From the IMG/VR virus record IMGVR_UViG_3300043438_001221: DNA of 64,000 nt, one strand, 5' to 3'. Positions 48,567 through 55,705 of the stretch are shown in pieces. Source of the stretch: a virus. Every line of letters begins with the position of its first letter. The first letter of the stretch is position 1. The position numbers and the translations under genes are program-made. The notes beneath the pieces are model-generated. The model worked only from the letters and a program-made list of their open reading frames with translations. It was not told the DNA's origin and ran no database searches.

Positions 48567-50627
48567 TTATTTAAGATATTTGGAATACACTCGATATAAA
48601 TTGGTGTAATTGTGTTTTTTGGATAGAACTTCAAAATTACTTTTTTCCGTGGAAGGTGTATCGCGGAAAGAATTTTCTCTCGCTTCATAGTGTTCAATCT
48701 CCATGAGGCAATATAAGCGCAAAGCGTTTAAGATGTGGGGAAAGAATTCATCCAGAAATTGCACGAATTGGAAATTCTTATTATCCATATTTTTAAAATT
48801 TATCTTGAAATTGTCAGTTACTAACACATTGTTGTAATTATATACCGTGGTGACACCCATCATTAAAAAGTCTATACCTTCCATGGGATTGGTATATGAT
48901 TCAAAAAATTTATCAAATTGTAGCTGTGCTGGATCATCTCCAGCTTTGGGTTTGAAATTTTCCATTGCCAAATTGGTGATAATTTTTTCGGTAATATCGG
49001 TTAAATTTCTCAGGTTGGTTGTTGGATAATCAACACCAGTATTGGTCGCCCACAACAATAATTTAGCTGGAGCATCTACATTAAATGCTTTCATGGGTTT
49101 ATTTCCCTTCAGTGCAAAATTTTCAAACCATTCCTCTTCATCCGCCAGATACTCGGTGATCATGGAATAATTTGGATCACCATCTGGTGCTTCTTTTATA
49201 AAACCAGCTTCCACGAATATTTCCAATAATTCATCCTCATCATCCAACATATCCTCGATCTTATCGTCAAAATTCTTTAGATAATGACAATAAGTACCAA
49301 ATTTATCGGAATCGTTATGATATTCCTCGTCTGAAAAATGGATTTCCAAGCTGGTGTTGGTTAGGATCATTCGATATATGTTTATGTCAGCGGCATCATA
49401 TATGTATTGGAACAATTGGGAATATTCATAATCTTCATCATATTCCCCGTCACGCGCCTTACTAACATCGTAATCTTCAACTTCCAATTCAACATCATCC
49501 GGTAAATTGAACTTGGTTAAATCAATGGTGGATGTTCCATTGGCTTGGAACATGGGTTGTTCATCATTATCATACCAATAATCAACACTGCTATATGTCA
49601 ATCTGTTGTTATACCGCTCTTTTATTTCCTCAAGCTCATCTTTCAGACCCAATTGGGAATGTCTGTTTTCAGTGTTTTCATCATCCCAATCATGTTCAAT
49701 CCTTTTAAAATCGGATGAATCTTGTTGGTTCTCTTCATCCGAAAAATAATTGGCAACCAGATCACGGATTTCATCGTCGTAATATGTCCCCCCTTTTTTA
49801 GTATAAGAATTGCCCCGGAAATCTTCAGGTGTGGTTGATTGCTTCCCTTTTAGGTAATTCACCAAGGATTTGTAGAAATTGGGAATCGTAGTATCCCCAT
49901 ATATCTTGGTATCGGGAATGGCAATCTCATCCCCATTATCATCTACCAGACGGCGAACGCGCAAACGGGACATGGGGCGCAATCCATAAGCACCGGATAT
50001 TCCCCTATCGGAATCCACGAATATTTCCCTCTTCTGAAAATCCTCTTCCGTAAGCTCGTTGAAATCCTCTTCTCGCACTACATAGGCAACAGCACCCCCC
50101 GAAATGGCTTCTTGGATGGCGCATTGAAAATATCCCCCACCTTGGGAGTGACAGGATGATATGTTGCGGTGATCGGACATGCGAACCACATCAATGGGAG
50201 CGCGGGAGAGAATGACTATGAATTCCGGCTTCTCAAAAGCTGCTTCCAGATTGTCCTTATACATCGCAAACCAATCCAGATATTTTTTCTTTTTGTTTTC
50301 CGATACTTTCAGGGCAGCAATCGCTTTGCCAATGTTGATCTTCTGTTCCTTGTGTTCTCCCTGTCCATACTTTGGATCAAGCTTGATTTTCCTAATGACT
50401 TCCCCTTTCTTCAAATCCACCTTGTCAAAATGCTGGATTCTTTTCATGTCATCCATGATACTCTGAGCCGTAATGTCCGTTCCAATGGGAAATGCCACGC
50501 GCATCTTGTCTCCAAAAATATGATCAAAAGGTAGGTCATCTGAATGTTGGTTGAGATAATCCACGACCTTTTGGTTCATCTCTGTGATGAGGACGGATTC
50601 GTAGAGTTCTTGGAGTTGGAAAATCAT
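48567..50627 (-). CDS. large acidic hypothetical protein (late, possible internal head protein)
   Basis: 686-aa ORF with LYES..ITE leader and late promoter. Confidence 0.7.
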   Translation of the reverse strand: MIFQLQELYESVLITEMNQKVVDYLNQHSDDLPFDHIFGDKMRVAFPIGTDITAQSIMDDMKRIQHFDKVDLKKGEVIRKIKLDPKYGQGEHKEQKINIGKAIAALKVSENKKKKYLDWFAMYKDNLEAAFEKPEFIVILSRAPIDVVRMSDHRNISSCHSQGGGYFQCAIQEAISGGAVAYVVREEDFNELTEEDFQKREIFVDSDRGISGAYGLRPMSRLRVRRLVDDNGDEIAIPDTKIYGDTTIPNFYKSLVNYLKGKQSTTPEDFRGNSYTKKGGTYYDDEIRDLVANYFSDEENQQDSSDFKRIEHDWDDENTENRHSQLGLKDELEEIKERYNNRLTYSSVDYWYDNDEQPMFQANGTSTIDLTKFNLPDDVELEVEDYDVSKARDGEYDEDYEYSQLFQYIYDAADINIYRMILTNTSLEIHFSDEEYHNDSDKFGTYCHYLKNFDDKIEDMLDDEDELLEIFVEAGFIKEAPDGDPNYSMITEYLADEEEWFENFALKGNKPMKAFNVDAPAKLLLWATNTGVDYPTTNLRNLTDITEKIITNLAMENFKPKAGDDPAQLQFDKFFESYTNPMEGIDFLMMGVTTVYNYNNVLVTDNFKINFKNMDNKNFQFVQFLDEFFPHILNALRLYCLMEIEHYEARENSFRDTPSTEKSNFEVLSKKHNYTNLYRVYSKYLK

Positions 50628-50655
50628 ATTATTATTTAAGGGATAATGTGAAAAA

Positions 50656-50729
50656 TGGTAGCCCCACCGAATTTCGAGTTCGGAACCTACAGAGTCAAAA
50701 TCTGTTGCTCTACTTTGAGCTATGGGGCG
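50656..50729 (-). tRNA. tRNA-Gln(TTG)
   Basis: Cloverleaf, anticodon arm ACAGA-TTTTGAC-TCTGT, CCA encoded. Confidence 0.85.
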
Positions 50730-50731
50730 AT

Positions 50732-50821
50732 TGGTGGGTGCCGCTGGAGTCGAACCAGCACAGACTTATTGATGTTGCCGCTAATTTACAGTCAGCTTTG
50801 CTCTCCAATGCTAGGACACCC
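50732..50821 (-). tRNA. tRNA-Tyr(GTA)
   Basis: GCTGA-CTGTAAA-TTAGC, long variable arm, GGTTCGACTCC, CCA. Confidence 0.85.
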
Positions 50822-50822
50822 G

Positions 50823-50900
50823 TGGTCAAGTGGGAGGAATTTGAATCCCCAATCTCTCCCGTCCAAAGGGAGCGCGATAGCCAGATTACGCCACCACTTG
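50823..50900 (-). tRNA. tRNA-Pro(TGG)
   Basis: CTCCC-TTTGGAC-GGGAG, CCA. Confidence 0.88.
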
Positions 50901-50910
50901 ATGAAAAATA

Positions 50911-50984
50911 AGCCTCTGGTCGGAATCGAACCGAAAACATAACCTGATTACAAATCAGACATTCTACCGTTGAATTACAGAGGC
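50911..50984 (-). tRNA. tRNA-Thr(TGT)
   Basis: TCTGA-TTTGTAA-TCAGG, GGTTCGATTCC; CCA not encoded. Confidence 0.85.
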
Positions 50985-50989
50985 GATAG

Positions 50990-51063
50990 CACACCAGAAG
51001 GGACTTGAACCCTCAGAATTACCGCGTGAAAGGCGGTTGGCTTTACCATTTGCCTACTGGTGC
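50990..51063 (-). tRNA. tRNA-Glu(TTC)
   Basis: ACCGC-CTTTCAC-GCGGT, GGTTCAAGTCC. Confidence 0.85.
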
Positions 51064-51072
51064 ATTGAAAAT

Positions 51073-51165
51073 TGGCTCTTAGGGGTGGGGTCGAACCACC
51101 ATACCGCTCGGAGACGGATTACAACAAATTAACAGTTTGCCCTCTTGCCATTAGAGTACCTAAGA
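51073..51165 (-). tRNA. tRNA-Asn(GTT) with atypical long variable arm
   Basis: GCAAA-CTGTTAA-TTTGT, ~23-nt variable region, CCA. Confidence 0.8.
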
Positions 51166-51167
51166 TT

Positions 51168-51254
51168 TGGTGGGTTCGGCAGAATTCGAATCTGCGATGT
51201 CCTTGCGGAGACGGATTAAAAGTCCGTTGGTTTCAGCCACTTACCTACAAACCC
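51168..51254 (-). tRNA. tRNA-Lys(TTT) with atypical long variable arm
   Basis: ACGGA-CTTTTAA-TCCGT, variable hairpin TCC-GCAA-GGA, CCA. Confidence 0.82.
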
Positions 51255-51331
51255 ATAAAATATATTTCAACATTTATATTAGTCTTTCACCACTCTCTAG
51301 CTTTTCTGGCAGCTTGGTTCACCCTCAAAAC

Positions 51332-51360
51332 AAAAAACCCCATCTCGTTAAAGATGGGGC
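51332..51360 (-). terminator. intrinsic terminator (attenuator) upstream of the tRNA operon
   Basis: GCCCCATCT-TTAACG-AGATGGGGT followed by TTTTTGTTTT on the minus strand. Confidence 0.85.
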
Positions 51361-51388
51361 GCGAAAAACAGTAGCAATTACCATATAA

Positions 51389-51451
51389 TCATTCACGCCG
51401 CCACCCATATGGTGTCGGTTTCTCCTGATTATAATTTTGGTCGTTGCTCAT
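51389..51451 (-). CDS. putative attenuator leader peptide MSNDQNYNQEKPTPYGWRRE
   Basis: 20-codon ORF between CTAAATA and the terminator; codons 5-15 are all cognate to the downstream tRNAs. Confidence 0.7.
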   Translation of the reverse strand: MSNDQNYNQEKPTPYGWRRE

Positions 51452-51461
51452 GTCGTTATTC

Positions 51462-51629
51462 TTATTTAGCAGATTGGTTCGTTTTTTCAAGCGATTTTTT
51501 TAATTCTAGTGAAATTTGTATCAAATGTTCAGAATTGAATGGTGAATTGTAGCCTGTTGGTTTTGGATTGCTTGCCAAATATTCCAAAGCTTTGATGGCT
51601 TGTTGGTCACAGTTATTAATGAATTTCAT
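51462..51629 (-). CDS. hypothetical protein (55 aa, MKFINNCDQQAIKALEYL...)
   Basis: Read manually; ATGA overlap with the upstream gene. Confidence 0.55.
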   Translation of the reverse strand: MKFINNCDQQAIKALEYLASNPKPTGYNSPFNSEHLIQISLELKKSLEKTNQSAK

Positions 51630-52069
51630 TTGTTTGTTTTTTCAAGGAAAATTTTGTCAATAATTCCAATTTGTTGTTTTAGGTCTTCTCTTTTATCTTG
51701 CAATGTTCTTACGATCCCATCTTTATTTTTATCATTATAAGATTCAATTTCAATGATTTCGTCTATGGTGAACACGGAATCATCAGCTTTTTTGATATTA
51801 TACCAAGTTCCCCAATAATCCCAATCGTATTCAAATTCAAGACCATTCCATTGAAAATCTTTATATGTGGGAATATGATCACTGTTCAATCTGAATTGGG
51901 TGATCCTAGTCCTCACAATTCTATCAACAATCTCACCGGAAATCCAACCTTTGGATAAAATCTCCTTTGCCCATGTTTCGGCTTGGTTATCAATTTCCTG
52001 TTTCTCCAATTCTTTCTTTCGTTGTTCCAATTGCCAGATTTGCAATTCGATGTCGCTTATCGTTTTCAT
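51626..52069 (-). CDS. hypothetical protein
   Basis: Preceded by TAAAAACTAG-AA-TACAAT. Confidence 0.65.
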   Translation of the reverse strand: MKTISDIELQIWQLEQRKKELEKQEIDNQAETWAKEILSKGWISGEIVDRIVRTRITQFRLNSDHIPTYKDFQWNGLEFEYDWDYWGTWYNIKKADDSVFTIDEIIEIESYNDKNKDGIVRTLQDKREDLKQQIGIIDKIFLEKTNK

Positions 52070-52090
52070 GTCTCTATTGTATTCTAGTTT

Positions 52091-52315
52091 TTAAGGCACT
52101 CCAGCCCGCAATCGTTTTGATCTTCCGGTGTGATAGGAATTACTGGCAGCGAACAGCTTACCCTTCTCTTCGTAGATTGGAACCCTACCAAAGCTGATCA
52201 TATACCAGAGAAAGTGGATGTCAATCCTTTTGTCCATGCAGATGTGGATACCAAACGAAATATCGGGGTATCCGAAATCGGTGATCCAGAATCTTTTAAT
52301 CTTGTGGAATTTCAT
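52091..52315 (-). CDS. hypothetical protein
   Basis: Coupled ORF whose stop lies in the TAAAAACTAG motif. Confidence 0.55.
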   Translation of the reverse strand: MKFHKIKRFWITDFGYPDISFGIHICMDKRIDIHFLWYMISFGRVPIYEEKGKLFAASNSYHTGRSKRLRAGVP

Positions 52316-52659
52316 GATAAATTGTAATGTGCCTTCTTCACCAGATCGAGAATCCCCTTATGTTCCACGCAACAGTTCAGGAATTTCAACCAGTCCCCAA
52401 CACCAAAATTCTCAAGAAACGCAGCCTTGAATTCGGGATTCCAATCAAGGTATTCGTATTCATTCCCGTGGAAGGTTTCTTTTTTATTGATTACCGCTGG
52501 TATGATGTTGTTTGGTAATCCCTCCCACCCAATCGTTGGTTTTTGTTCGGGGTCTGATAGCAATTCCGCTTCGGTTGTAATACCATCCCCCGTGGCAAAG
52601 TATTCAAAAACCGCTAGGGAATAATTCTCAAGGTGTTTCGGTAGTCCTGTTATTGTCAT
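52312..52659 (-). CDS. hypothetical protein
   Basis: 115-aa ORF. Confidence 0.6.
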   Translation of the reverse strand: MTITGLPKHLENYSLAVFEYFATGDGITTEAELLSDPEQKPTIGWEGLPNNIIPAVINKKETFHGNEYEYLDWNPEFKAAFLENFGVGDWLKFLNCCVEHKGILDLVKKAHYNLS

Positions 52660-52882
52660 ATTTTAAAATTTCATTTGATAATTCGTCGTATATCCAATTC
52701 TTCCTACCCTTTCCAAAGATATTCAGAATCCGATTCCAAATTCTTTCCCATAGGGTAGGATAGTAATACATGATGATCGGCTCTGGATCAATCTCAACAG
52801 TCCAATTACCTTCCAATTTTCGGATTCCCTGTTTCACTTCAACTTTTTCAAATTGTATTTCAACGGTCTTCTTCATGTTCAT
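52628..52882 (-). CDS. small protein resembling an internal segment of gp23
   Basis: VEIQFEKVEVKQGIRKLEGNWTVEID vs gp23 IELKFEKTAVEAGTRRLATRWSVELE. Confidence 0.6.
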   Translation of the reverse strand: MNMKKTVEIQFEKVEVKQGIRKLEGNWTVEIDPEPIIMYYYPTLWERIWNRILNIFGKGRKNWIYDELSNEILKYDNNRTTETP

Positions 52883-52979
52883 TCTTATCCTTACACGTTC
52901 TTTTCCACTTGAACCATTTCAACCACTTACAGGTTGAGGTTTCGGTTTTGATTTTCTTTCGTAGCTTTTTGTATTTCAT

Positions 52980-53324
52980 TTAATAGATGGATCTGGAGTC
53001 ATCATTGAAAAAACTTTGAATCTTTTCCATCGCTTCTCGAATCTTTGCGTTTTTAAGTTCAATATCTCCCATACCCCTAGCATCCCCCAAGCTATTCAAT
53101 AGGATTCTCATGAAATCATGTAGCCCCATGTTTTTATTCGTCAATCTCCAATGAATTTCATTTTTAGCTGACTCAATCGCTAATTTTTCATTACCGTCAA
53201 ACGTCTTAGCTAAATTCAGTCTTTGGACATCATCCATCATATTTGGGGTGATTTTCAGGGAAGAATTAACCAATGATACAATTGTATCATCCCCATCTTT
53301 TTCTACTTTATATTTCAGTTTCAT
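52980..53324 (-). CDS. hypothetical protein
   Basis: ATGA-coupled ORF. Confidence 0.55.
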   Translation of the reverse strand: MKLKYKVEKDGDDTIVSLVNSSLKITPNMMDDVQRLNLAKTFDGNEKLAIESAKNEIHWRLTNKNMGLHDFMRILLNSLGDARGMGDIELKNAKIREAMEKIQSFFNDDSRSIY

Positions 53325-53602
53325 GACATTCGGGATGCTTCCCAATTCGTTAAAGGTGTCGAATTGTAATGGCAATCAATGTCATGGACTTCCCGCCAAT
53401 TTGCGAGACGGGATAGCTCGATGGCTAGATCATCTGCCAATTTCCTTTCAGCGGCAAGCTTATCAATATTATCGTTTAACATATTGATAATATTCTGTAA
53501 GGAATCACGAGAACCGATATATAGTTCCCCACATTCCGCGATTTCCAGCTTGCCGTTTTTCCTTCGATGAAGGACTACTTGACTTGGTTCTCCTGTGTTC
53601 AT
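53321..53602 (-). CDS. hypothetical protein
   Basis: ATGA-coupled ORF. Confidence 0.55.
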   Translation of the reverse strand: MNTGEPSQVVLHRRKNGKLEIAECGELYIGSRDSLQNIINMLNDNIDKLAAERKLADDLAIELSRLANWREVHDIDCHYNSTPLTNWEASRMS

Positions 53603-53919
53603 AATTCTATTTTTAAATTTTTAACTTTGGAATGAACTCCGTATATTTTACAACACTTGTTACATATGGTTGAAGAACACCACACCCCCGTTGACCTTCC
53701 AATTTTCAGGGTTCCACAATGGGGACATTTTAGAAGAAACGTCCAAATGGTTTCTTTGATTGGATTTCCCCAAGAATCTATTCCCTTGAATGGATCACCA
53801 TACAAATCTGTGTTTGCGTCCCATATTTCTTCGGGTAGGGAATATGCATACACAATATGTTCTTCAGGAATCATTGTTGGTGATCTGAAATCCGTCCCCA
53901 TTTCTTTACCTATGTTCAT
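53599..53919 (-). CDS. hypothetical Zn-ribbon protein
   Basis: CPHC...CNKC. Confidence 0.55.
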   Translation of the reverse strand: MNIGKEMGTDFRSPTMIPEEHIVYAYSLPEEIWDANTDLYGDPFKGIDSWGNPIKETIWTFLLKCPHCGTLKIGRSTGVWCSSTICNKCCKIYGVHSKVKNLKIEL

Positions 53920-53922
53920 AAT

Positions 53923-54213
53923 TTAATCTGTAATATAACACAAATCCCATCTTTCGCAAACAAAATTGAGACTATCCTTGATAAATTCCCGCATTGTTTT
54001 ATCATTGTTTGGTTCAATAGCTTCAAACCAAACCCCTCTAAGTTCTGATAGGAATGAAAAATCTTTTATAAATTCCTGTTTCAACGAATCATCGGGTAGC
54101 AGTAGCAATCCCTTTGAGTAATTTTCAATGTCTATTGCGACCTGAAAATCATATTTTCCTTCTTCAAGATCGACAATGGTTGCATTGTTTTTAGTTCTTA
54201 TGTAATGTGTCAT
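53923..54213 (-). CDS. hypothetical protein
   Basis: 96-aa ORF. Confidence 0.6.
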   Translation of the reverse strand: MTHYIRTKNNATIVDLEEGKYDFQVAIDIENYSKGLLLLPDDSLKQEFIKDFSFLSELRGVWFEAIEPNNDKTMREFIKDSLNFVCERWDLCYITD

Positions 54214-54223
54214 ATTTTGAAAG

Positions 54224-54297
54224 TGGCACAGGGAGAGGGTTTCGAACCCCCACCAACCGATTTGGAATCGGACATACTGCCGTTATACTATCCCTGA
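54224..54297 (-). tRNA. tRNA-Trp(CCA)
   Basis: CCGA-TTCCAAA-TCGG, GGTTCGAAACC, CCA. Confidence 0.85.
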
Positions 54298-54299
54298 AT

Positions 54300-54373
54300 T
54301 GGAGCGGGTGGAGGTAGTCGAAACCTCGTCTTCTGAGTGGAAGTCAGTTGCTCTACCGTTGAGCTACACCCGC
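54300..54373 (-). tRNA. tRNA-Gly(TCC)
   Basis: GCGGGTG acceptor, CTGA-CTTCCAC-TCAG, TCCA end. Confidence 0.9.
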
Positions 54374-54375
54374 TT

Positions 54376-54453
54376 TGGTAGGAGGAGTCAGATTTGAACT
54401 GACGATCTTTGGAGCATGAATCCAATGCTTTAACCTGACTAAGCTATCCTCCA
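54376..54453 (-). tRNA. tRNA-Met/Ile2(CAT)
   Basis: TTGGA-TTCATGC-TCCAA, CCA. Confidence 0.8.
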
Positions 54454-54470
54454 ATTGTTTTTTTGTTGAC

Positions 54471-54564
54471 TGGTTACGGAGGCAGGATTTGAACCATTTA
54501 TGCGCGTTTTTGTAGCCTTCGCCTTATGAGGACGACGAGATCGACCAGACTTCTCTACTCCGTG
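54471..54564 (-). tRNA. initiator-like tRNA-Met(CAT) with an insertion disrupting the variable loop and T stem (possibly pseudo)
   Basis: C1:A72 mismatch, CTCATAA loop, GGTTCAAATCC, about 17 extra nt. Confidence 0.6.
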
Positions 54565-54577
54565 TTTGAAGTTATAT

Positions 54578-54805
54578 TTAATCATGATATTCCGGTTTGT
54601 CAATGGGAAACCACATCCACTTCGGCATTTTTTGTAAATCGAGATACGTTCTCCCGATTCCGGGGCAGTCCCATATCTCAACACTCCGTTCATCGTCTTT
54701 GTAATTTTTGGAATGTGTGAAATATTTCAATTCTGGATTTTCGGATTTTTTCTTTATCACCCAATAATACCCAAAGGTTTCCGGTAGGTTTGGTTCAAAT
54801 TTCAT
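54578..54805 (-). CDS. hypothetical protein
   Basis: Preceded by TAAAAACTAG-AA-TACAAT. Confidence 0.6.
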   Translation of the reverse strand: MKFEPNLPETFGYYWVIKKKSENPELKYFTHSKNYKDDERSVEIWDCPGIGRTYLDLQKMPKWMWFPIDKPEYHD

Positions 54806-54826
54806 GTTCCGATTGTATTCTAGTTT

Positions 54827-55195
54827 TTAAAGACAATTTGCAGCCATCCTTGCCATGTTCCATCCTTCCGTGGTCGGCTCAAACCGCGCACATACGATAT
54901 GTCCGTCTCCCAGAATGTGGGGATCAAGCTTTCCAAAGTATTTCAAATCGATGTGGCAACGCAATAATAATAATTTATCGCCCTTGAAAGTGGTGCATCC
55001 CTCGTAATTCACCAGAAGGATCATTCCCCTTTCCAACTTTTCCTCTTTCAGAACCTTAAACTTGAAAGGGTTTGGATTGGGGGCATAAACCTTTTCCTTT
55101 GGAATCCTTAGAAAATTATTGATCGTTGAACTCGATGCCGTTTGGGGCGTTGAGTTGCTGTCACTGCTTTTTGATAATCCGATTGCCAATCCCAC
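54827..55195 (-). CDS. hypothetical protein
   Basis: Preceded by TAAAAACTAG-GC-TAAGAT. Confidence 0.6.
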   Translation of the reverse strand: MGLAIGLSKSSDSNSTPQTASSSTINNFLRIPKEKVYAPNPNPFKFKVLKEEKLERGMILLVNYEGCTTFKGDKLLLLRCHIDLKYFGKLDPHILGDGHIVCARFEPTTEGWNMARMAANCL

Positions 55196-55228
55196 GATGG
55201 CTTTATCTTAGCCTAGTTTTTAAACAAG

Positions 55229-55705
55229 TCAAGCATACAATTCGTCCTGCATTCCCGCAAGATATTCCCCATCCAATTCGCGGATCATCTTGGATTGCGC
55301 CACGATGTCGGGATTGATGATGATCACGGAAAGGTTCTCGTTCCGAATGTCCCCCTCTCCCGTGTTCTTGTAGAAAGCCAAATCGTATTGATCCAACCCT
55401 TTCACGAAACCGTAGCCATGATCGGAACCGTCATCGGGCAAAAGCTTGGGGAAAACGCTTCCCATTCGTAAAACCAATTCATACAAATAATATTTATTAT
55501 ATTTTCCCTCGTCATTTATCATGAAATCAGCACGGATCAAAGCCTGTTGTTCCGTGCCGCAATGGGAACCAGATTGGTAATCGTTCTTGGACGCTCTGGC
55601 GGATGATCGGAAAACCTTGATGTATTCCATTCCTACAATATCTTTCAATTTCGTGGTGGGGGTCAATTCCTGAATGTCATAGAAGGATTCCAAAAGTGTT
55701 CTCAT
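55229..55705 (-). CDS. putative ADP-ribosyltransferase-like protein
   Basis: VFR, GSHCGT..QA..R, Y...L, YD..FYKNTGEG...S.III.P pattern; late promoter. Confidence 0.45.
   Translation of the reverse strand: MRTLLESFYDIQELTPTTKLKDIVGMEYIKVFRSSARASKNDYQSGSHCGTEQQALIRADFMINDEGKYNKYYLYELVLRMGSVFPKLLPDDGSDHGYGFVKGLDQYDLAFYKNTGEGDIRNENLSVIIINPDIVAQSKMIRELDGEYLAGMQDELYA

Follow-up and report, generated by a model that had tools for sequence, protein, structure and literature searches.

The tRNA array and its leader

The window analysed here, the whole 64,000 nucleotides of IMG/VR record IMGVR_UViG_3300043438_001221, is part of the genome of a T4-like phage known from uncultured material only, and among its products are a portal protein, a ribonucleotide reductase, a helicase and a tail-sheath stabiliser. 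A blastn search against the phages of GenBank returned tRNA-sized matches only, and no close relative of the window. The minus strand carries, in this order, a 55-codon ORF with its end at 51463, then a promoter-like site, the 20-codon ORF, an intrinsic terminator, a spacer of 75 nt and seven tRNA genes. ARAGORN calls six of these (Lys, Asn, Glu, Thr, Pro and Tyr); tRNA-Gln, with anticodon TTG (50729–50659, minus strand), was found by Rfam only, at 54 bits. The first two genes of the array, tRNA-Lys and tRNA-Asn (51254–51073, minus strand), are 87 and 93 nt long and have long variable arms; their homologues at the related locus L002 measure 77 and 75 nt. Neither PHROGs nor Pfam contains a family for the neighbouring products of 686, 147 and 55 residues, and the 147-residue protein has no match in IMG/VR. 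The features to which we refer below, all on the minus strand, are the following.

51485–51490, minus: −35-like hexamer TTGAAA, inside the conserved CTTGAAAA; invariant in all 12 leader versions, upstream of which the sequence differs
51463–51471, minus: −10-like element TG-C-TAAATA, conserved in relatives
51389–51451, minus: 20-codon leader ORF, stop counted, from ATG (51451) to TGA (51389); kept in 12 versions with five peptide types
51426–51433, minus: P0, 5′ strand, at codons 7–9, also a perfect TATAAT hexamer; from minimum free energy folds
51399–51417, minus: P1 hairpin, at codons 12–18; six pairs invariant in 12 sequences, with a loop (codon 15) that varies freely
51392–51399, minus: region 2, the 5′ strand of P2, ending directly at the stop codon; from the alignment fold and covariation
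51384–51391, minus: P0, 3′ strand, starting with the stop codon; from minimum free energy folds
51358–51365, minus: region 3, the 3′ strand of P2, whose last 3 nt (51360–51358) are the base of the terminator stem; from covariation
51327–51360, minus: intrinsic terminator, with a 10-bp stem and 4-nt loop (stem-loop 51360–51337) and a T-tract; from terminator prediction and a compensatory change
51277–51301, minus: 25-nt block after the terminator, invariant across leader families, with TTGCTA-like and TAATA boxes
50659–51254, minus: tRNA array Lys(UUU), Asn(GUU), Glu(UUC), Thr(UGU), Pro(UGG), Tyr(GUA), Gln(UUG); from ARAGORN and Rfam

Where would transcription of this module begin? The initial annotation had remarked on a CTAAATA ahead of the 20-codon ORF. 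The motif is indeed there (51469–51463, minus strand), and it belongs to a larger promoter-like site, TTGAAA-16-TG-C-TAAATA, in which 16 nt separate the −35-like hexamer from TAAATA. A consensus promoter scan omits this site because its position 6 is A. The leader ATG lies 11 nt after the −10-like motif, the predicted start of transcription about 4–6 nt before the ATG, and the 5′ untranslated region would thus be some 5 nt long. The leader at the 5′ end of the transcript is a short ORF with a start and a stop codon, a placement that rests on the predicted start site.

There is no Shine–Dalgarno site at the leader ATG, and the phage's own genes are generally without one too. Instead, the motif [CT]TAA[AG]TA stands exactly 5 nt before the ATG in about 25 genes of the window (for example 12442, 19097, 31842, 50639 on the minus strand and 48574 on the minus strand). 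It looks like a promoter of the T4 late type that would give rise to leaderless mRNAs, and its spacing suggests that the mRNAs of this phage are leaderless or nearly so. A leader AUG within a few nucleotides of the 5′ end would plausibly fit the phage's usual mode of starting translation, and we regard translation of the leader ORF as plausible. The invariant TATAAT within the ORF (inside 51426–51433, minus strand) was flagged as promoter-like and could be an additional promoter.

The window contains a second tRNA cluster (Met, Met, Gly and Trp; 54564–54224, minus strand). Its promoter, TTGACA-17-TAAATA (54575–54597, minus strand), stands immediately before the first tRNA, with neither leader nor terminator. 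This cluster, with its similar promoter, is a useful internal contrast to the leader-bearing array.

Conservation of the module

Relatives of the locus were sought in three ways: the 686-residue product of the gene downstream of the array served as query in a protein search, IMG/VR and metagenomes were scanned with DNA patterns, and the leader alignment was turned into a covariance model. Twelve distinct versions of the module were found, all on related uncultured freshwater-type viral contigs of up to 194 kb. The conserved stretch starts precisely at the −35 box and stops at the T-tract; the flanking genes are swapped among relatives. Upstream the genes vary from phage to phage, with a tRNA-Gly directly upstream in one family. 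Downstream, the post-terminator spacer is of two unrelated types that have been shuffled among the leader types.

The more distant relatives of the 686-residue neighbour, at 43–47% identity, have no tRNAs nearby. Two relatives of intermediate distance, L044 and L045, carry smaller tRNA clusters behind plain promoters and lack the module. The metagenome scan for the element returned the same phage group and chance matches only. A pattern scan of bacterial and archaeal genomes gave two matches, which we read as chance because their flanks lack a promoter, a leader ORF and a terminator; the element was not found in these genomes.

Within the group, the ATG, the TGA and the length of 20 codons are kept in 12 of 12 versions, which encode five peptide types. 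In the second leader family the invariant motif TATAATCA is closer to the ATG by 3 nt, with the distance from P1 to the ATG unchanged, a pattern that fits two 3-nt indels inside the ORF. The sole 1-nt indel, in L048, sits outside the ORF, in the 5′ untranslated region. The amino-acid sequence of the peptide is not conserved: between the L016 and L048 leader types six codons differ, none of them synonymously, and the replacements still fall within the set of codons read by the tRNAs. In one relative (L043, 2722–3258) an upstream ORF of 178 codons has lost its own stop; its reading frame stays open across the promoter, joins that of the leader ORF and closes at the leader stop.

The post-terminator spacer holds little structured RNA, the consensus fold amounting to only −2.5 kcal/mol. 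The invariant 25-nt block, itself almost without RNA structure, is absent from the other spacer type (the L002 group); it is possibly a promoter, a processing site or a binding site. We also considered TATAAATG, which follows the terminator in the window, as a conserved promoter and rejected it, the relatives differing at that place.

Codons of the leader ORF

The leader peptide is MSNDQNYNQEKPTPYGWRRE. The initial annotation had drawn attention to its codons 5–15 (51439–51407), and our count agrees: all 11 are among the 14 codons read by the seven anticodons of the array, and all seven tRNAs are sampled. The naive chance of about 1e-7 attached to this run was too optimistic. The 14 codons make up 33% of the codons in the phage's genes, which raises the figure to 5.6e-6 per position. 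A six-frame scan of the window yielded three runs of at least 11 such codons, of which only the one in the leader includes all seven amino acids. In frame, 13 of the 19 leader codons belong to the set, as against 4 and 5 of 19 in the other two frames. In dinucleotide shuffles of the ORF a count of 13 of 19 had a probability of 4e-4 and a run of 11 a probability of less than 5e-5, at a site that was picked post hoc. We conclude that the codon match is real and confined to one frame, and that base composition does not explain it. The module contains a promoter, a terminator and conserved structure, and the frame-specific codon signal argues for coding constraint as well.

Do the leader codons follow the tRNA genes when these change? 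For 13 loci we compared the leader with the tRNAs listed downstream of its terminator. Over codons 2–15, 154 of 182 codons (85%) are cognate to tRNAs behind the terminator, and three loci score 14 of 14. Codons 16–20, which form P1 and P2, contribute 0–2 cognate codons out of five per locus. Every downstream tRNA is sampled at least once in 10 of the 13 loci. Matched pairings of leader and array exceed permuted ones (154 against a mean of 148.5, P ~0.001), a small effect in a test that ignores phylogeny. Particular gains are mirrored as well. A tRNA-Ala(UGC) occurs only in phages that have GCA or GCG in the leader; L051 has a tRNA-Ile(GAU) inside the array and ATT at leader codon 15; L048 has a tRNA-Arg(ACG) and CGA at leader codon 5. 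The initial annotation had proposed testing whether leader codons and tRNA content vary together among related phages, and such tracking is what we find. There are counter-examples. The leaders of L016 and L017 hold Ala codons without a tRNA-Ala, and a reverse-strand ORF occupies that place. In L031 the Asn and Lys codons of the leader are unchanged beside a chimeric Asn/Lys tRNA, and in L048 a tRNA-Ile lies further downstream with no Ile codon in the leader.

Several tRNA genes of the relatives are unusual in themselves. The chimera of L031 (3640–3712, minus strand) starts as tRNA-Asn and carries the anticodon and 3′ portion of tRNA-Lys, the two being joined at their identical D arms; it is either a deletion or an assembly collapse. 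In L035 (651–726) and L030 (5189–5264) a tRNA body of the Thr type carries the anticodon TGA rather than TGT, and ARAGORN calls it Ser; these genes may be anticodon-switched. On the record of L016 there are, in addition, a tRNA-Arg(UCU)-like gene with a long insertion (L039, 646–737) and, far from the main array, a tRNA-like gene with an aberrant anticodon loop (L040, 568–643). ORFs that resemble homing endonucleases by eye lie between tRNA genes in L001 (5294–5803), L031 (3450–2950, minus strand) and L042 (2060–2620, minus strand). These insertions coincide with the gain or loss of neighbouring tRNAs (Ala, and a second Tyr).

Competing RNA structures

Single-sequence folds of the leader RNA show a long helix P0, P1 at its tip, and the full terminator, with z-scores of −3.1 to −5.1. 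The terminator that had been noted ahead of the tRNAs is present, as a stem-loop of 10 pairs (51360–51337) followed by a T-tract. RNAalifold, applied to the alignment, gives instead P1, a shortened terminator and a helix P2, in which 7–8 nt ending at the stop codon pair with 7–8 nt ending in the base of the terminator.

What is the evidence for P2? Three of its seven pairs change on both sides among the relatives, and 94% of the cells of the alignment are paired, compared with 35–59% in slid controls; P2 is mismatched in L036. A helix between the leader's 3′ end and the terminator, GGCGTGAA with TTCGCGCC, formed part of the initial annotation and is borne out by this covariation. The additional pairing of ATGG with CCAT proposed there fares less well: both L031 and the second leader family break it, with no compensating change. 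Only about 3 nt are shared between P2 and the terminator; P2 covaries and shares columns with the terminator base. One such column has its partner in region 2 when P2 forms and in the 3′ arm when the terminator does, and neither pairing is lost as the column changes. Three relatives show a compensatory change in the terminator as well, from C-G to U-A, and L050 has the U-G intermediate. As the 12 versions come from one narrow phage group, all of these covariation counts rest on few independent events.

For the other two helices covariation is of little help. P1 never varies, so that covariation says nothing about it, and P0 is uninformative because the relatives show U-A to U-G changes only. 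P1 is a candidate pause hairpin or anti-antiterminator. The apparently conserved positions of the peptide coincide with P0, P1 and P2, and constraint at the nucleotide level therefore explains much of the conservation of the ORF. An Rfam cmscan of 49500–55500 at E values up to 1 returned tRNAs and chance matches only, with no family in the leader and no T-box.

Folding in the presence of a ribosome

How would a translating ribosome alter this balance? We took its footprint to reach from 15 nt ahead of the first A-site base to 12 nt beyond it, forced this stretch to be single-stranded and folded the remainder of the leader, as had been proposed in the initial annotation. In the free RNA the base of the terminator is formed with a probability of 0.9–1.0. 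With the A site at codons 2–10 (window) or 2–14 (L016), region 3 moves onto region 2, and the probability of the basal terminator pairs falls mostly to 0.03–0.2, the exceptions being codon 7 in the window and several codons of L016 at 0.3–0.9. With the ribosome at codon 15 or later, the stop codon included, the terminator is restored. This is a profile of the trp type, the terminator being on in the free RNA and with a ribosome at the stop, and its base being off upon stalling.

The same three-state profile arose in none of 200 dinucleotide shuffles of the window leader, in none of 200 of L016 and in one of 200 of L048, a leader whose free RNA already favours P2. The zone of codons at which stalling would be effective coincides with the zone of codons matched to the tRNAs. 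Mask folding is an equilibrium model of a decision that is in reality kinetic, and its stall state keeps a shortened hairpin of 7 bp, 3 nt from the T-tract. We assume that opening the three basal pairs would abolish termination.

The proposed mechanism and its alternatives

We read the module as a ribosome-mediated (leader-peptide) attenuator of transcription that lies between the tRNA array of a T4-like phage and its promoter, and give this reading a probability of roughly 0.65. Transcription would begin a few nucleotides before the ATG of the 20-codon ORF. If the RNA were not translated, P0 and P1 would form and the terminator would halt transcription before the tRNAs. A ribosome delayed within codons 2–15 would open P0 and P1 and leave region 2 free. 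Region 2 would then pair with region 3 to form P2, the basal terminator pairs next to the T-tract would be lost, and the polymerase would enter the tRNA genes. A fast ribosome that arrived at the stop codon would cover region 2, which ends there, and the terminator would form again. Translation and transcription would presumably be coupled in the leader. Nearly all of codons 2–15 are read by the downstream tRNAs, so that the module would adjust the production of tRNAs to how far the supply of just these species meets demand, in a negative feedback.

The ribosome-dependent reading of the initial annotation is supported by the anatomy of the module, the conserved ORF, the codon match, the covariation of P2 and the mask folding, and all the computational checks that the annotation had suggested turned out in its favour. 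Among the points against it are that a single codon per tRNA should cause only small delays, and that L044 and L045 have tRNA clusters behind plain promoters, with no such module. As for what is sensed, we would lay even odds on the translated leader being a test track that gauges the decoding speed of the codons served, a control with many inputs that turns the array on when host tRNAs are depleted or cleaved (for example by anticodon nucleases acting on tRNA-Lys or tRNA-Tyr). The link to host anticodon nucleases and host tRNA destruction is conjecture.

Might the module be an independent small RNA gene instead, of about 120 nt, whose product acts in trans or as a decoy, with an incidental ORF and a constitutive terminator? 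It is a self-contained unit from promoter to terminator and far better conserved than its flanks; it folds strongly, P1 is invariant at the nucleotide level and the variation lies in loops. Attenuator RNAs may also double as small RNAs, as does rnTrpL of Sinorhizobium (PMC7968998). We nevertheless find a small RNA gene unlikely. It leaves unexplained why codons cognate to the tRNAs behind the terminator are in excess in one frame, the 3-nt indels inside the ORF as against the 1-nt indel outside it, the appearance of new Ala, Ile and Arg codons alongside matching tRNA genes, and a helix that covaries and is in competition with the terminator base. Moreover, the module always stands directly upstream of the same tRNA array and matches no Rfam family. 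A peptide with a function of its own, 20 residues long, would account for the conserved length, start and stop of the ORF; the changes between leader types are nearly all non-synonymous and the residues retained coincide with RNA helices, so that we find a micropeptide scarcely credible.

The terminator could, alternatively, merely insulate the array from upstream transcription, the tRNAs being transcribed from a separate promoter in the spacer. The invariant block at 51301–51277, with its promoter-like boxes and near lack of RNA structure, would suit such a promoter, and in the window TATAAATG lies nearby. Most relatives, however, have a candidate −10 without the conserved final T, and conservation does not extend to TATAAATG; spacers of the L002 type have no such block and yet the leader and terminator are kept there. 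A spacer promoter would also leave the leader's own promoter, the ORF and P2 without explanation, and we hold it to be quite improbable. Could a factor other than the ribosome flip the switch, be it a phage or host RNA-binding protein on P1 or a tRNA that binds directly? P1 is more invariant in the 12 versions than pairing alone demands, alternative structures exist, and the lack of a Shine–Dalgarno site together with a 5′ untranslated region of a few nucleotides would be at home in such a scheme. Yet the Rfam search, at E values up to 1, revealed neither a T-box nor any other known riboswitch, T-box leaders are far longer than this one, the freely varying loop of P1 would make a poor specifier, and the codon match in one frame is again unexplained. 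A non-ribosomal switch is in our view very improbable. We retain the leader-peptide attenuator as the likeliest reading, and with it the view that the phage probably makes more of the array tRNAs when ribosomes read the leader codons slowly.

Comparison with known systems

The tRNA genes of phages are usually seen as constitutive helpers in codon usage or as spares against host anticodon nucleases. Short ORFs were reportedly noted among the tRNA genes of phage T5 in the 1980s. The tRNA regions of T4- and T5-like phages resemble the present one in their clustered tRNA genes, inserted homing-endonuclease genes and dedicated promoters. If our reading is true, textbook attenuation extends from amino-acid operons to the tRNA genes themselves, and phages gain a direct feedback sensor of decoding capacity. 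The simple signature of promoter, codon-matched mini-ORF and terminator would then serve to find regulated tRNA operons in metagenomes. A full-text literature search that covered few subscription journals brought up no description of a leader-peptide attenuator before tRNA genes, in phage or cell.

T-box riboswitches are likewise tRNA-responsive switches between terminator and antiterminator in a 5′ leader. Unlike the module, they recognise uncharged tRNA by direct contact, for which they have a specifier loop and the T-box motif. They control aminoacyl-tRNA synthetase and amino-acid genes and measure 200–300 nt, against about 115 nt for the leader here. The rnTrpL RNA and peTrpL peptide of Sinorhizobium illustrate that a terminated attenuator RNA and a leader peptide can have functions of their own; that system (PMC7968998) controls trp genes, and a trans function of the phage module finds no support in our data.

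The closest likeness is to the attenuators of amino-acid operons. Leader-peptide attenuators control biosynthetic operons through trpL, hisL, pheL and leuL and through the multivalent thrL and ilvL, and the classical ones use runs of one codon. The pheL attenuator has been described in PMC3082878. In common with these, the module has a short ORF close to where the transcript would start. Its regulatory codons precede a hairpin, its stop codon is so placed that a terminating ribosome would block the antiterminator, and an intrinsic terminator stands before the regulated genes. It would also share their three-state logic of free RNA, stalled ribosome and ribosome at the stop, and it samples several amino acids, as the thr and ilv attenuators do. 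It differs from them in being a phage element whose regulated genes are tRNAs rather than enzymes, so that the signal would be the supply of the tRNA species itself, in direct negative feedback. Seven to nine tRNAs are sampled by one to four codons each, with no run of a single codon. There is no Shine–Dalgarno site, the 5′ untranslated region would be about 5 nt, and antiterminator and terminator overlap by about 3 nt. Most likely, then, the module puts a known mechanism to use in a setting that is new, and its multi-tRNA design is new as well.
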